The notes beneath the pieces were generated by a model. That model was given only the letters and a program-made list of their open reading frames with translations, was not told where the DNA came from and searched no databases. A DNA stretch of 46,711 nt from Thelocarpon superellum (Eukaryota): assembly GCA_026025795.1 (NCBI GenBank), contig JAPEUG010000101.1:1-46711 (forward strand), written 5' to 3'. Position numbers and translations under genes: made by a program. This document shows, piece by piece, positions 4,183-46,197 of this stretch (position 1 is the stretch's first letter; every line of letters begins with the position of its first letter).

Positions 4183-4346
4183 CTAGTAGTACTACTACTG
4201 AGGTAGTAAGATGCTTCATATACTTAGCTAGCTTAGTAGTAGCAGCAGCAGCAGTAGTAGTAGCAGTAGCAATACTATTGTAGTAGCAGTAGCAGTAGTA
4301 GCAGTAGTGGTAGTATAACTACTACTACTACTAGTAGAAGTAGCAG
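4183..4346. repeat. Compound (TAG/CAG/TAC)n microsatellite between convergent genes
   Basis: Runs such as tagtagtagcagcagcagcagtagtagtagcagtagc and actactactactagtag between the 3' ends of AGC1 and the PQ-loop gene. Confidence 0.9.
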
Positions 4347-4494
4347 TCGCCTCGAATCCGCCAAAGGCGAGTCACGGGGCTGCGAATGCTTCGAGTGATC
4401 TCTCCCTAAACTCCTCTACCCTCCTCGAACCTTCTCTATTTCCGGCTCCTCTTCCGCATGCTCCCATTCCTCCTCTCCAAACGGTGCTCACAGA

Positions 4495-39521: not shown

Positions 39522-40189
39522 GGAGGTGGGTGAAGGCGCAGCGTGACAGTTGGGCCGGGAATGTCTCGCTCTCGACGGATAGGCGCAGGGGGAGAGGTTA
39601 CCAAGAGGCCTTTCCTGCAACGATCACTCGATCCAGCTCTGCCCCGGTCGGTCACTGCCGTGTGGCCGTACGAGGAAGCGGAAGGGAGCGTCTTGGTCAA
39701 GCTCGGGGACTCCACGAAAGCTGCCCACGCGAATCCCTAGACCCCAGAGACTGACCCGAGCGATGTCAAGTGCCTCGTCGATAGCTCTCCCAGACTCATC
39801 AGTCATGGCTAACAGGTCTGGAGCAAGATGAGTGCAACATGAAGAATGAAATCCCGTCGTCTGTGCAGCGACTCGGGAGAGGAGACAAAGAGCGTGTCGT
39901 CGCGCTTTGCGTCAGACGGGCTTCGAAGGTCGCATCCGTCGAGAGTAGACTGTCGACCATCGTTCGGAACGGGGGTCGCGTCTGATTGGACGACAACCTC
40001 AACATTTGCCGTCGCTCTCGATCTTGTTGTGGCGACCCCCCGGGAGTCTCCGCATTGACCAACAACATCGGCAATCCGATAGCTGGTGATTACAGGAGCG
40101 CTAGTCTGAGCTGGATGGGATCTCTGTTGATATTGATGGTGAGGTAGTGGACGGTGGATCTGCTCCGTGATAGGGTCGTCGTCCTCACG

Positions 40190-40990
40190 ATGTCGTCGCT
40201 CCGACCCTTCCACCCACTTGACCTCTTCAAGTGCAACCTCACGAACCTCGACAGCCTGACCGAGAACTACGACATTGGCTTCTACCTCTCTTATCTCGCC
40301 CGTTGGCCCTCCCTCTTTACCGTGGTGGAGGGTCAGCGAGGAGAAATCAACGCGTATAGTATGTCCAACTTTCCTCTCCCACCGCCTCCCCCTTCCCTCC
40401 CCACCTCCTCCCAATCGACTACCCTGCTGCATCTACACATTCGCACACTAACGCGCACGACCAACGCCACAGTCATGGGTAAACTCGAGTCATCTCCAGC
40501 GGGATACCAACACTCGCAGCACTATTTGCCCTGGCACGCCCACATCACCGCCTTGACGGTAGCACCGGCGTCGCGACGACTGGGGCTGGCCCGTCTCCTC
40601 ACACAGAGTCTCGAGCGCGCCGGCGATCAGTACAACGCGTGGTTCGTTGACCTGTTTGTTCGCGAGAGCAACAAGGTCGCGACGGGCATGTATAGAGGCA
40701 TGGGGTATGTAGTCGTTCTCCGAGCCACCGAGCTTCTTCACCAGTCCACCTTGGTTCGACATAGCTACCTTTCCTCATACCCTCCAACATACATGACTGA
40801 TCATTGTCTTTGCACCCACAGGTACAGCGTCTTCAGACGCGTCGTCGGCTACTACAGCGATGATCCGACGGGAAAAGCGAGCGGCGAGGACGCCTTTGAC
40901 ATGCGGAAGCCGCTGGCGCGTGATAAGACGCTCAAGCATATCCGCGAGCGTGGCGAGGATCATAGAGTGTGGCCGGAGGACGTGTGGTAG
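40190..40990 (+). CDS. NAT3: N-terminal acetyltransferase B catalytic subunit (Nat3/NAA20, GNAT)
   Basis: Exons 40190-40358, 40473-40704, 40822-40990. NLDSLTENY, YLARWP, MGKLE, PWHAHITALTVAPASRRLGLA, FVDLFVRESN, GYSVFRRVVGYY, EDAFDMRKPL. Confidence 0.96.
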   Translation: MSSLRPFHPLDLFKCNLTNLDSLTENYDIGFYLSYLARWPSLFTVVEGQRGEINAYSMSNFPLPPPPPSLPTSSQSTTLLHLHIRTLTRTTNATVMGKLESSPAGYQHSQHYLPWHAHITALTVAPASRRLGLARLLTQSLERAGDQYNAWFVDLFVRESNKVATGMYRGMGYVVVLRATELLHQSTLVRHSYLSSYPPTYMTDHCLCTHRYSVFRRVVGYYSDDPTGKASGEDAFDMRKPLARDKTLKHIRERGEDHRVWPEDVW

Positions 40991-41229
40991 TTCGTCATCT
41001 GGGCGATCCTTGTGGCATGGGCAGGACATACATCTGTACCTTAGCGGGCGTTTCGTTGTTTCGACGCACCACAATGACACTCAATTCTACGACCGTCCAG
41101 TTCTACTCCTGCTCTTACGGTGCAAAGGTCTCGAAACACAAAAGCTTGTCGTACTGCCACGACCTATCCTATTGCTAACTACCGCGATGGTCGATGGCAA
41201 AGGACGCTGGCATTACACCCACCCCTTGA

Positions 41230-41854
41230 CCCCCGAAGCCGAGAAACAGATGGTTTGCCAGACCAACTGCTGGCTGCGCAGGGACACGAGGAAGATATGA
41301 GACCAACGCCCCTCCCCCCTTCGATCGATCGAACACAAGGAAAAAGCAAACGCATCGCTGGCATTAACCCACCCCCCGGAGCCGCGCAACGATTGGGTTG
41401 CCAGACCAATCGCTGGCTCCGCAGGGGGGGCGAACACGCCGCCCAAAAAGACGAACCAAGGAGACGGCCCCCCGGAGCCGAGGAACGGTTGACTTGCCAG
41501 GCCAACCGTTGGCCCCGGCGGGGCCCACACGGTGACAAAAAGGAATGAGAGAGAAGGAGAGACAGAGGAAACGACCCCCCGGAGCCGCGAAGCGGTTGGT
41601 TTGCCAGACCAACCACTGGATCCGGCGGGGCCCACAAGGCAAACCAGGGCCAAGGAAATGACAAAAGGAAACGCCCCCCAAAGCCGCGAAACGGATGGCT
41701 TGCCACACCATCCGTTGGCTTCGCAAGGGCAAAAACGCCCAAAGAATAGGACCAAGGAAAGACAAAGAAAAAACAAAGGAAAGCGGGAGCACACTTGTCC
41801 CCGGAGTCACGAAACGAATGGCTTGCCGGACCATCCGCCGACTCCGCAGGGGCA
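41230..41854 (-). repeat. Array of six diverged ~55-60 nt stem-loop repeats separated by variable U-rich spacers (putative structured-RNA cis-element array)
   Basis: Copies at ~41230-41283, 41372-41430, 41466-41525, 41575-41630, 41673-41730, 41796-41854. Plus-strand consensus ccccGGAGCC-gcgaaa-CGGWTGGy-TTGCCAG-ACCAWCCG-yt-GGCTCC-gcagggg, with compensatory substitutions in the stems. Confidence 0.88.
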
Positions 41855-42002
41855 GGCATGCTCCCTAGAACAAAACAAAACAACAAAGGAAAGAAATCCC
41901 CCTCCCCCGCTCCCTCCCCCACCCCATCGAGCCCTTCCTCTGATGAAGCTTGGCGCGAGCAAGAGCACCTGGCCCGCATCGCTCCACACACCTCCGGCTC
42001 CC

Positions 42003-43847
42003 CTAACCGGAGGTGATGGAGGCGACGTGCACCAGGCGCTGCTGCCCGCCCATCTTCACCATCACCACCAACTGCTGGACCCCCTCGCCGGGATCGGCGA
42101 GCTCCCCGTCCACGCCGGGCGGCAGCGTCCAGGCCTCCAGCTTGATGCCGGCGGCGTTGGACGGTGACGCCGGCGTGGCACGCGGCGAGCCCGCCGGCCT
42201 GGCGAGACCCAGCAAGAAGTCCAGGCCGCAGGTCGGACACGAGATTGCCAGTCTCGTGCCCGTCTGCGCCGCGTGGAGCGACACTGTCCGCCGAAGATTG
42301 GCCAGACAGTGCGCGTGGGCCGGCTCGATGGCGAGCGACTCGTCGACGGCCCCGTCCGTCGCCGCGTCGCTCTGGTCAGGACGCCCCTCGGACGCCTTGG
42401 CCAGGACCGCAGACGGAGAAGAGCGCCCACCGAGGCACTTCTCCCGCTGAATCATCCGGGGGAATCGCCAGAAACCCCCCGATGGCTCCCTCGGAGCCGA
42501 CGCCTTGGACGGAGTCTGGGACGCCGAAGTCAAATGAGCCCGAAGGCTCACCTCGGACGCCGTCCCGACGTCAGACGCCCGCGCCGCCGGCCCGCTGGAC
42601 GGCCCGAACCTGGGCCCCTCGGTCGGACGAGTGGCCTCGCCCAGACCCCTCTTCCGCCCGAGAAAGTCGGGTTCAAAGACCCCTAGTCGCTGCGCGAAGG
42701 TCGGCTTTGCCAGAGCCGCCTTCGACACGAGCGGCGTGGGGGCCGCGGGGGTGTCAAGCCCGATGGACGGGTGGCCGACGCTGCCGTCGGCCACGGCCAA
42801 CCGGTCTTGACACGCGTTGCACAACCAATGGTAGCAACGCAGGCACATCAGACTCGTCGTCTGACTGCAGCAGGCGGCCTGGCAGGCCGCCCGCACCACG
42901 GGGGTCTTCAGCTCATCTCTCGCCACAAGAGATGACCGAAGGAAGCCGTCGACCCGCTCCCGGGTCGTGCTGGGTGGGGGCGCCGGCGTCGTGCCCGGGG
43001 CCGAAGAGGTGACTGGGGCCGCCACCGAAGGACAGCGACCCCCCGACGGTCCCGCGGGCGGCGCCGGGCGAACGGCCTGCCGCTGTTGCCGCTTGGGTGG
43101 CACCAGCGGCCGGGACTCCTCCACCCGCGTCCACACCCGCTTCTTGGCCGCACTGATGCCCTGTTAGCGGATCTCGCGCAAAAAGCACGGGGGCTCGCCA
43201 GCTTACCCGCCAAATTGAGACTCCAGGAGCCTCACCCGGTCCTTGATCGCTCCATTGAGCGGCGGGAAGTGGGAGAACCGCATCCCGGTCCGGACGTCCG
43301 ACGGGATCTGGCGGTATGAGAACCCATCGAACGGTTTCCCCAACATGCAGTTGTTGTAGTGCGACGAGTGGGGCACGTGGATGGAGGAGAGCGCCCGGTG
43401 ATCGTGGCGGAATTTCTCGGCGATACCCTTGGGGTTGGCCAGCCATTCGTACGGCTTCGTCCCGTATGGGAGGGAGGCCCGCTGGCCTCGTCGCTCGAAG
43501 CTTGCCACGCGGTTGATCACCGTGCCGTTGGACTGTTCCGAGATTGCCTCGGAGACAGCGCGGGGATGTTCGATGAACGTGCTCATCCGTTCGCGCAGGG
43601 AGGGCGCCGTGTTGGATCGCGTGCGACGACTGGAGTCAGCTTGCGCTGTTGCATCGAGCCAGGTTTTCGACCGCTCAAAGGCTTGGACCCGAGAAGCCAC
43701 GTATCCGGGCTTGATCGAGGCCGCCGACGAAGATGGTGGGCCGCCCGGACGCTCGATCGCTTCAACCCGAGCCACGACGGAGCCAGACTTGTTGGATGCC
43801 TCGGACTGCGAAAGCGGCGAGACTCGTCGGCTGGAAACGTGCGACAT
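42003..43847 (-). CDS. Orphan ~596-aa protein with repeated VxxRVxxFE-like motifs and Cys-rich (Zn-finger-like) segments
   Basis: ATG 43847. Exon 1 43847-43207, intron 43206-43153 (GTAAGC...GCTAAC...CAG), exon 2 43152-42003; the splice fuses two long ORFs in frame. Contains CQAACC-x7-CLRC-x4-CNAC and HAHC...CPTC. No family recognised. Confidence 0.65.
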
Positions 43848-45347: not shown

Positions 45348-46197
45348 TTACTTCAGCGCAGCTTGCAGACTCTCCAGGACCTATTGGCGGTGTCAATAGG
45401 AGGTATCGTATACTCCATCTCCGAAGTAGATCAACATACCTCCAGTTCGATCTTCGCCTCTGCGATGTCCTGCTCGCTGCCGCTCCCACCAGCAATCTTC
45501 TGTGCCTCGCTGATTTGCGATCGAACAGCCTTATAGTCCAGTCATGTGGTCAGCGAGGATGCCATAGACGGTCGATACAGGGAGCGAGATCTTACGTCTG
45601 CGCTAAAGTCTTCGAGCGGGAAACCCTCCGCGGCGTTGATGCTCAACTGCGAGCCAGGTTGGACGATGGCAAAGCCTCCAGACACTGCCAGATGTATAAC
45701 GTGAGCATCGTTCCCTTCAGCCATCGTTGACGGGCTGACAAACAGAAGTATTGCTTGTTGCCACCGCTTTCCTCGATGATCTCCACCAGTCCGGGCTTCA
45801 GTTGCTCGATTGAGGGCACATGGTTCGCAAGCACACCCATCTCGCCCGACTCAGCCGGGATATTGACTTGCACCCTGTGTACGAGGTCAGAGAATGCGGT
45901 CTAATACGCAGGCTCGAGATACGTACACGTCGGTAGACTTGTAGATCGACTGGAAAAGGTCAAGAGGTCAGCAACAGAGGGACTCAATCTTAGACGTCTC
46001 ATCAGACACGATGGGTCGAACGGTGTGCATGGTCGCCCAGCCCACGTCGAACTCGGTTCACGTACCTCATGTGGGAGAGCTAGGGAGAGCTTGATCTTGT
46101 CCGGGACGGCCTCGGCATAGCCCCGACGTGGCAATGGGGCAAATTGCCGTCGCGGCAATGATCGGAGAGCTATTCTTGCGAGTCGGAGGGAATTCAT
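45348..46197 (-). CDS. ATP16: Mitochondrial F1 ATP synthase delta subunit
   Basis: Exons 46197-46066, 45949-45927, 45874-45744, 45684-45596, 45529-45440, 45380-45348. Presequence ...RRGYAEAV; QVNIPAESGEMGVLANHVPSIEQLKPG, LSGGFAIVQPGSQLSINAAEGFPLEDFS, EAKIELEVLESLQAALK. Confidence 0.97.

Follow-up and report, generated by a model that had tools for sequence, protein, structure and literature searches.

The 46,711-nt stretch of DNA analysed here, referred to as the window, is contig JAPEUG010000101.1 of the Thelocarpon superellum assembly GCA_026025795.1. Its minus strand carries a tandem array of six long RNA hairpins downstream of a protein-coding gene without detectable homologues (hereafter the orphan gene), and two further hairpins with the same loop inside the coding sequence (CDS) of that gene. 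These eight hairpins, and their candidate role as docking sites in the messenger RNA (mRNA) for the Smaug-family protein Vts1, are the subject of this text.

The array spans positions 41226-41855, with its units all in one orientation. An earlier note, made from the sequence alone, had described six hairpin units at 41230..41854, and a repeat search found every one of them there, as a 54-nt core that occurs six times (74-81% identical to the reference copy), starting at 41230, 41373, 41469, 41576, 41675 and 41798, with start-to-start spacings of 143, 96, 107, 99 and 123 nt. With their flanks, the units are as follows, in the order in which they would occur in the RNA, with scores from model R1:

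41794..41855, minus strand: unit u6, 5'-most in the RNA; loop CCGGCAA; 72.1 bits; heptaloop probability 0.89
41671..41732, minus strand: unit u5; loop GUGGCAA, the sole loop without C at position 1; 79.3 bits
41572..41633, minus strand: unit u4; loop CUGGCAA, includes UCUGGCA; 79.0 bits
41465..41526, minus strand: unit u3; loop CUGGCAA with a C-G closing pair; 79.3 bits
41369..41430, minus strand: unit u2; loop CUGGCAA, with a U x C mismatch at the closing position that gives a 9-nt open loop; 80.7 bits
41226..41287, minus strand: unit u1, 3'-most in the RNA; loop CUGGCAA; single U-U mismatch in the upper stem; 79.3 bits

These six sequences align without gaps over 62 columns, 25 of which are invariant, at a mean column identity of 84%. 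A pattern of 20 bases from the invariant columns still matches only the six units in the window when up to three mismatches are allowed (0.00 matches in 100 shuffles), and model R1 detects no array-like copy elsewhere in the window, where its top minus-strand match outside the array reaches 18.0 bits with an expectation value (E) of 0.19. The spacers are 34-81 nt long and U-rich on the minus strand (U 46%, C 26%, G 22%, A 6%), in line with the non-identical, U-rich spacers of ~35-90 nt noted earlier. Their identity to one another (0.466) is that of shuffled sequence (0.464 +/- 0.011). They nevertheless have short CU-rich motifs in common, namely UYUCCUUGG in three of the five and the further repeat families D3, D5 and D7; therefore, whole units were duplicated, with the spacers later decaying and the hairpins being kept. 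Such shared, short pyrimidine-rich motifs (41288-41793, minus strand) could also serve a second, single-strand-binding protein. An additional 31-nt flank is common to u1 and u2 and missing from the other units (41205-41235 and 41356-41386; 74% identity); it suggests that a longer, 143-nt unit was duplicated at a later time at the array's 3' end.

Each unit folds into 6 bp, a 1-nt bulge, 7 bp, a 10-bp upper stem and a 7-nt loop; on the 3' side, a one-sided internal loop of 4 nt interrupts the stem. The stems quoted in the earlier note are correct in sequence (CGATTGG/CCAATCG, GGTTGGT/ACCAACC, CGGATGG/CCATCCG, and GGAGCC/GGCTCC versus GGAGTC/GACTCC). Its consensus needs a small correction, as the segment written 'AR' pairs with 'UU', the upper stem is 10 bp long and the interruption is the one-sided 4-nt internal loop.

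Several measurements agree with the proposal, also made earlier, that the minus strand is the relevant one. Among the 138 cells of the 23-pair structure, 92.0% are standard pairs on the minus strand versus 80.4% on the plus strand; the minus strand has 17 G.U cells, spread across 11 pairs, versus a single A.C cell; and it folds more stably than the plus strand in five of the six units and equally well in the remaining one, with unit z-scores of -2.1 to -4.8 versus shuffles. Changes from the consensus in the paired columns comprise 13 C>T and 9 G>A. Because this input is roughly balanced, mutation bias does not account for the asymmetry between G.U and A.C, and G>A changes have been retained almost only at sites where minus-strand pairing is kept. 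The dinucleotide ratios (TpA/ApT 0.18; (CpA+TpG)/(ApC+GpT) 1.29), compared with the thresholds for repeat-induced point mutation (RIP), give no RIP-like bias.

The earlier observation that the sequence diverges while pairing is kept holds as well. Six pairs have changed on both sides, compared with 2.3 +/- 1.1 in column shuffles (two of 500 shuffles reach six); they include one U-A to A-U transversion pair, and compensatory changes affect four of the ten pairs of the upper stem. As a control, sliding the 3' partners by 1-3 columns lowers pairing to 33-57% of the cells. The covariation is thus modest but present, and it comes from six paralogous copies at one locus. When the 1003 nt 3' of the orphan stop codon (41000-42002) are folded as a whole, the six hairpins each form as separate local structures. 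Taken with the better minus-strand folds, the G.U asymmetry and the compensatory pairs support the conclusion that constraint acts on the minus-strand RNA hairpin. The stems have probably diverged by compensatory change following tandem duplication, with the effect that each copy folds locally.

The best-conserved region of the unit is the loop, with five of its seven columns invariant and a pairwise identity of 0.90; the corresponding values are 0.71-0.83 for the six stem arms, including 0.73 and 0.71 for the two arms of the upper stem, and 0.63 for the internal loop. The loop reads CUGGCAA in four of the six units (u1-u4), and CCGGCAA in u6 and GUGGCAA in u5 bring the consensus to YNGGCAA.

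The same loop recurs outside the array. Following a published search for Smaug recognition elements (SREs), each of the 1950 CNGG sites on both strands of the window was assigned a probability of opening a hairpin loop of 4-8 nt from its 5' end, with a pre-filter that required a stem of at least 4 bp. Such a stem is present at 196 of these sites, 12 of which have a probability of at least 0.3, and half of the 12 fall on the minus strand within ~1.5 kb (41261-42713). Two of the hairpins in this region are not part of the array and lie in the CDS of the upstream orphan gene, on its coding strand:

~42227..42268, minus strand: hairpin h7; 11-12-bp upper stem with a CUGGCAA loop, 1x2 internal loop and 5-bp lower stem; probability 0.73; 11.6 bits
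~42678..42744, minus strand: hairpin h8; long interrupted stem with a CUGGCAA cap, includes UCUGGCA; probability 0.84; z-score -3.81; 14.6 bits

Both have exactly the loop CUGGCAA on stem sequences unrelated to those of the array units, and both share a layout of upper stem, small interruption and lower stem; in h8, the stem near the loop consists of 5 bp, a 1-nt bulge and then 6 bp. Among the 94 GGCAA sites in the window, ten place a 7-nt loop on a stem of 6 bp or more, and u1-u6, h7 and h8 make up eight of these ten. In 5000 dinucleotide shuffles of the CDS, two CNGGCAA-capped hairpins never occurred together and one occurred 67 times, and of the 20 CNGGCAA heptamers found elsewhere in the window, not one tops a hairpin. 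The strongest sign that the loop is read, and that the array is part of the mRNA of this gene, is the recurrence of an identical loop on unrelated stems, in every case on the gene's coding strand. Since h7 and h8 lie in this CDS and have the loop of the array, the array most likely belongs to the mRNA of the upstream gene, which favours the option, raised in the earlier note, that it lies in the orphan gene's 3' untranslated region (UTR). The hairpin set is real, non-random and strand-specific, and all of it is very probably part of one mRNA, for which we infer transcription through the array.

Two other hairpins in the window have related loops. Outside the orphan gene, only two stems of at least 6 bp have an NNGGCAA cap, and one of them is a plus-strand hairpin at ~46124-46154, with the loop GGGGCAA and an 8-bp closure. 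At 42859-42910, also on the plus strand and thus antisense to the orphan CDS, a GC-rich hairpin with a 9-bp stem and the loop CUGGCAG is the region's best match to model R1 (16.6 bits); on the minus strand the loop of this hairpin becomes CUGCCAG, which is no CNGG loop.

The orphan gene itself is annotated on the minus strand, its CDS running from 43847 to 42003, with 596 codons for amino acids, a single intron and a reading frame that is continuous across the junction. The parts of the gene and of its putative 3' UTR are:

43206..43847, minus strand: exon 1; ATG at 43845-43847; GC content at third codon positions (GC3) 0.771
43152..43205, minus strand: intron of 54 nt; GTAAGC ... GCTAAC branch site ... 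CAG acceptor, as read in the sequence
42003..43151, minus strand: exon 2; stop codon TAG at 42003-42005; GC3 0.837
41904..41934, minus strand: G-rich tract with a G-quadruplex-like motif, found by a regular-expression match; (TCCCCC)n on the plus strand; between the stop codon and the array
41226..42002, minus strand: minimal putative 3' UTR of at least 777 nt, placed from the positions of the stop codon and the array; includes the spacers

Well-supported frames elsewhere in the window have GC3 values of 0.75-0.83, and on the strength of GC3 and the canonical intron the gene looks like a real coding gene. Its product is labelled in a database as a hypothetical protein from a metagenome-assembled genome of Thelocarpon superellum, and the searches yielded no relative. 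Only the protein itself was retrieved among 7998 scored candidates, nothing else reached E <=0.001 among 1.84 billion representative proteins, and it contains no Pfam domain. The ESM Atlas model has a predicted local distance difference test (pLDDT) value of 0.38, the protein being predicted as unstructured, and has no structural neighbour with a template modelling (TM) score above 0.26. Four copies of a motif resembling RVxA(F/I)ER are found in the N-terminal half (exon 1, residues ~25-215), and exon 2 encodes a Cys-rich CxxC-x4-CxxC stretch.

The first unit of the array begins 147 nt past the annotated stop codon (42003-42005), close to the ~150 nt estimated earlier. Mean lengths of fungal 3' UTRs are given as 84-268 nt in an excerpt of one paper (PMC12810187). 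On the other side of the array lies a gene with introns for a GNAT-family acetyltransferase (40148-40990, plus strand; PF00583, E 9e-09), whose 3' end is ~235 nt from u1. The two genes converge on the array, and their transcripts could overlap. With regard to the assembly, a contig from sequencing run X1, possibly the source of this DNA, spans the array with no joints and no variants within it; runs X2 and X3 yielded short, low-depth pieces outside the array only. Logan contigs of run X1 break at the G-rich tract (41866-41928). Far from the locus, at 4234-4347, the window contains a long (TAG)n microsatellite of ~38 copies.

The Rfam 15 search proposed in the earlier note was run on 40500-42500 and returned no family at its gathering threshold, with three chance-level matches (E 4.1-8.8; 13-16 bits versus gathering thresholds of 55-76), and ARAGORN predicted no transfer RNA (tRNA) genes in 40900-42900. 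Metagenome and viral contigs were scanned with a pattern that demands an exact match at 20 fixed bases, so that close relatives alone would be detectable; the scan gave no match in viral contigs and, in metagenome contigs, one single-copy locus that is a chance match (6.4 bits by R1).

A number of other identities were considered and rejected. A coding tandem repeat is at odds with the periods, two of the five not being multiples of 3, with units in different frames and with the position of the array past the annotated stop codon. In the numbering of tRNA positions, the spacing of CUGGCAA resembles that of an anticodon loop, a likeness that fails at positions 32 and 33 in u5 and u6. Zn2Cys6-type CGG palindromes acting as DNA sites were dismissed, as covariation has removed the CGG triplets from u1 and u2, and the ends of two convergent genes flank the array. 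For a cluster of H/ACA or C/D small nucleolar RNAs, there was no Rfam match and neither pocket nor boxes were seen; a U1A-type loop on the plus strand is opposed by the strand evidence; and a pairing of the loop with a complementary UUGCCAG in its own transcript fails, as the plus strand has its three CTGGCAA sites elsewhere.

The closest likeness is to the SRE, for which we rely on excerpts of the published work. In these, an SRE is a hairpin whose loop opens, at its 5' end, with CNGGN0-3 (N0-4 in the published search) and whose stem is non-specific in sequence; CUGG and a G just 5' of the loop are preferred, and 5-nt loops best predict Smaug binding, which declines gradually with longer loops (PMC4053848). 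A second paper likewise places CNGG at the loop's 5' end (PMC2895634), and another specifies a G at loop position 3 and complementarity between positions 1 and 4 (PMC2683727). Selection work in yeast describes stems of at least 4 bp that carry tetra- or pentaloops, a G:C closing pair being favoured (PMC3045596), and the yeast SRE 'uCUGGCa', closed by u...a, is said to associate stably with the Vts1p SAM domain (PMC2275152).

Set against this definition, all eight hairpins have a stem of at least 4 bp, for which no sequence is required, and in seven of them the loop starts with CNGG (CUGG in six, CCGG in one), the exception being GUGG in u5. The loop is 7 nt long in seven of the eight, within the published 4-8-nt search range, and opens to 9 nt in u2. 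For the six hairpins that fall under the strict SRE definition, the probability of the heptaloop conformation is 0.68-0.89, and UCUGGCA, as in the yeast SRE, is present in four of the eight. In their arbitrary, covarying stems, their CNGG start at the 5' end of the loop, with G at position 3 and complementary positions 1 and 4, their favoured form CUGG and a length within CNGGN0-3, the hairpins are therefore like SREs. They also resemble SRE-bearing transcripts in that several copies occur in one mRNA, here across an open reading frame (ORF) and a putative 3' UTR; the examples in the excerpts are the eight SREs in the Hsp83 ORF and the two in the nanos 3' UTR (PMC4053848). The earlier note did not recognize the array as a known fungal element; in Rfam 15 nothing exceeded its threshold, and the loop matches the published consensus of the Smaug/Vts1 SRE, which gives the element a known closest kind.

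On these grounds we propose, with a probability of roughly 0.4, that the hairpins are a multivalent docking array for the fungal Smaug-family SAM-domain protein Vts1. In the proposed model, the minus-strand mRNA of this lineage-specific gene would display eight YNGGCAA/CUGGCAA heptaloops, two in the CDS and six in a long 3' UTR. The SAM domain of Vts1, the presumed reader, would dock on the CNGG loops irrespective of stem sequence, and a VTS-1 protein has been reported from the filamentous ascomycete Neurospora in an excerpt of that work (PMC10512220). Docked Vts1 would then recruit the Ccr4-Pop2-Not deadenylase, as described in excerpted form for the Smaug family in yeast and flies (PMC3468468), and the presence of eight sites could result in high-avidity destabilization of the mRNA and/or repression of its translation. 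The nearest known kind is the Smaug/Vts1 recognition element, and the array would count as a variant of it that is unusual, extended and multiplied in tandem; this known family accounts for most of the signal.

A number of points weigh against this proposal. The loops have 7 nt, compared with the 5-nt optimum for Smaug and the tetra- and pentaloops of the yeast selection work; in none of the eight is the loop preceded by the preferred 5' G (U in six, C in one, A in one); and the pentaloop register, in which a U-A pair would close CUGGC, has a probability of <=0.001 in the free RNA. The hairpins hence differ from the SRE optimum in having a heptaloop with an invariant 3' CAA instead of a pentaloop, and no G 5' of the loop. 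This CAA, at loop positions 5-7, is invariant in all eight hairpins, although the SAM domain is reported, as far as the excerpt goes, to make no contact with the 3' part of the SRE loop (PMC4053848), and thus the specificity of the reader may exceed or differ from that of Vts1. As an SRE needs a stem of ~4 bp, the conserved 23-bp, three-helix hairpin is left without explanation, and u5, with its GUGG, and u2, with U x C at the closing position, fall outside the strict definition. The covariation, moreover, is drawn from six paralogous copies, plus the two independent hairpins, at a single locus, and in h7 and h8 it is the plus strand whose fold is slightly more stable than that of the minus strand (-35.2 versus -33.2 kcal/mol and -40.5 versus -38.1 kcal/mol, respectively), because there the complementary loop is able to close further. 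The locus is also set apart from known SREs by its tandem, covaried six-copy array of 62-nt, 23-bp three-helix units, and no comparable SRE array, tandem fungal UTR stem-loop array or hairpin non-coding RNA from lichens was found in the literature searched, which did not include subscription journals.

Some of these points fit better with a different reader. The hairpins could be functional RNA elements of the orphan mRNA that are read by a factor other than Vts1, specific for the YNGGCAA heptaloop and/or the long stem; the orphan protein itself, a protein that binds double-stranded RNA or some other RNA-binding protein could act in this way, with roles in localization, stabilization, as a sponge or in the nucleation of condensates. 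GGCAA is invariant in all eight hairpins, including the CAA that is dispensable for known SAM-SRE contacts, the 62-nt three-helix form with its one-sided 4-nt internal loop is retained in six of six units, no hairpin has the preferred 5' G and the loop exceeds the SRE optimum. No candidate for such a factor is known, however, and Rfam has no similar family; the exact match of the first four loop bases to the SRE in seven of eight hairpins would have to be a coincidence; and the invariance of CAA across the array may stem in part from shared ancestry. We consider a reader other than Vts1 possible, though unlikely. A similarly tentative view would see in the locus an undescribed kind of eukaryotic cis-element, made up of a 62-nt three-helix hairpin with an invariant GGCAA heptaloop, sequence-orthogonal copies in the 3' UTR and further copies in the CDS of a young orphan gene, that serves as a high-valency platform or sponge for a Vts1 of extended specificity or for another reader, and that could drive sequestration or condensates and not simple decay.

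It is improbable that the array is a neutral palindromic minisatellite without RNA function, in which pairing has been kept by template switching or gene conversion. The copies are tandem and in a single orientation, the short motifs common to the spacers point to whole-unit duplication, the covariation comes from as few as six paralogous copies and the region is GC-rich with frequent palindromes, such as the plus-strand hairpin at 42859-42910 with its 16.6 bits. Pairing maintained at the DNA level should, however, be strand-symmetric, yet G.U and A.C cells stand at 17:1 with a balanced input (13 C>T, 9 G>A) and without a RIP-like dinucleotide bias; the loop is conserved above the stems while the spacers have decayed to the level of shuffled sequence; and the two hairpins in the CDS have the same loop on unrelated stems without being in tandem.

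Less probable still is a polycistronic small-RNA precursor, an option raised in the earlier note, in which the hairpins would be diced to ~21-25-nt microRNA-like or small interfering RNA products. With 62-nt hairpins of ~23 bp, placed every ~100 nt in the same orientation, the array has the outward form of a microRNA cluster, but its conservation is inverted. The loop is the most conserved part (0.90) and both upper arms have drifted equally (0.73 and 0.71), so that neither has been kept as a mature strand; in addition, h7 and h8 share the loop alone with the array, and the sole microRNA match in Rfam is at chance level (16 bits versus a gathering threshold of 76; E 7.6). Finally, a remnant of a mobile element (a miniature inverted-repeat transposable element, a foldback element or Helitron-end-like sub-terminal repeats) or a virus-derived sequence, to which the C/G runs flanking the hairpin units and the adjoining orphan gene might point, is very doubtful, as model R1 located no copy besides the array in the 46.7 kb of the window, the run X1 contig has a depth of 146 over the array versus 131-171 in the flanks (diverged copies would not raise this 31-mer depth), the scans of viral and metagenome contigs returned nothing beyond the one chance match, and no transposase or reverse-transcriptase domain lies nearby.

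The arrangement has parallels in other systems. In budding yeast, mRNA zipcodes of the ASH1 type consist of several hairpin elements distributed over the ORF and the 3' UTR, and are read by She2/She3, which are not known outside budding yeasts. Like these, the locus described here combines several structured elements and a small conserved loop motif across the CDS and putative 3' UTR of one mRNA; motif and reader differ, and the zipcodes are not tandemly duplicated. Bacterial sponge RNAs of the CsrB/RsmZ type and engineered MS2/PP7 arrays present many hairpins with a single loop motif between unstructured spacers and bind protein multivalently. In non-repetitive versions of the engineered arrays, diversified stems let the copies fold singly, as the covaried stems do here. 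In contrast to this eukaryotic array, which follows a protein-coding frame, those systems are bacterial or synthetic and use other loop motifs. Clusters of polycistronic microRNAs are similar in their ~60-nt hairpins, ~100-nt spacing and single orientation, and differ in that the array conserves the loop and not the arms.

If the array were neutral after all, it would be of little consequence. If the Vts1 proposal is right, it would be a naturally occurring array of Smaug/Vts1-type sites, packed very densely, in a lichen-associated filamentous ascomycete, a group in which the targets of this repressor family are essentially uncharted, and post-transcriptional control would be built into a gene without a detectable homologue. 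With an invariant CAA and a long stem, the hairpins indicate a code of recognition that is richer than the CNGG loop. In nature, the array would also mirror the engineered non-repetitive stem-loop arrays, its stems having covaried apart while the protein-facing loop stayed fixed, and would provide a clean case for how selection maintains RNA structure after duplication.

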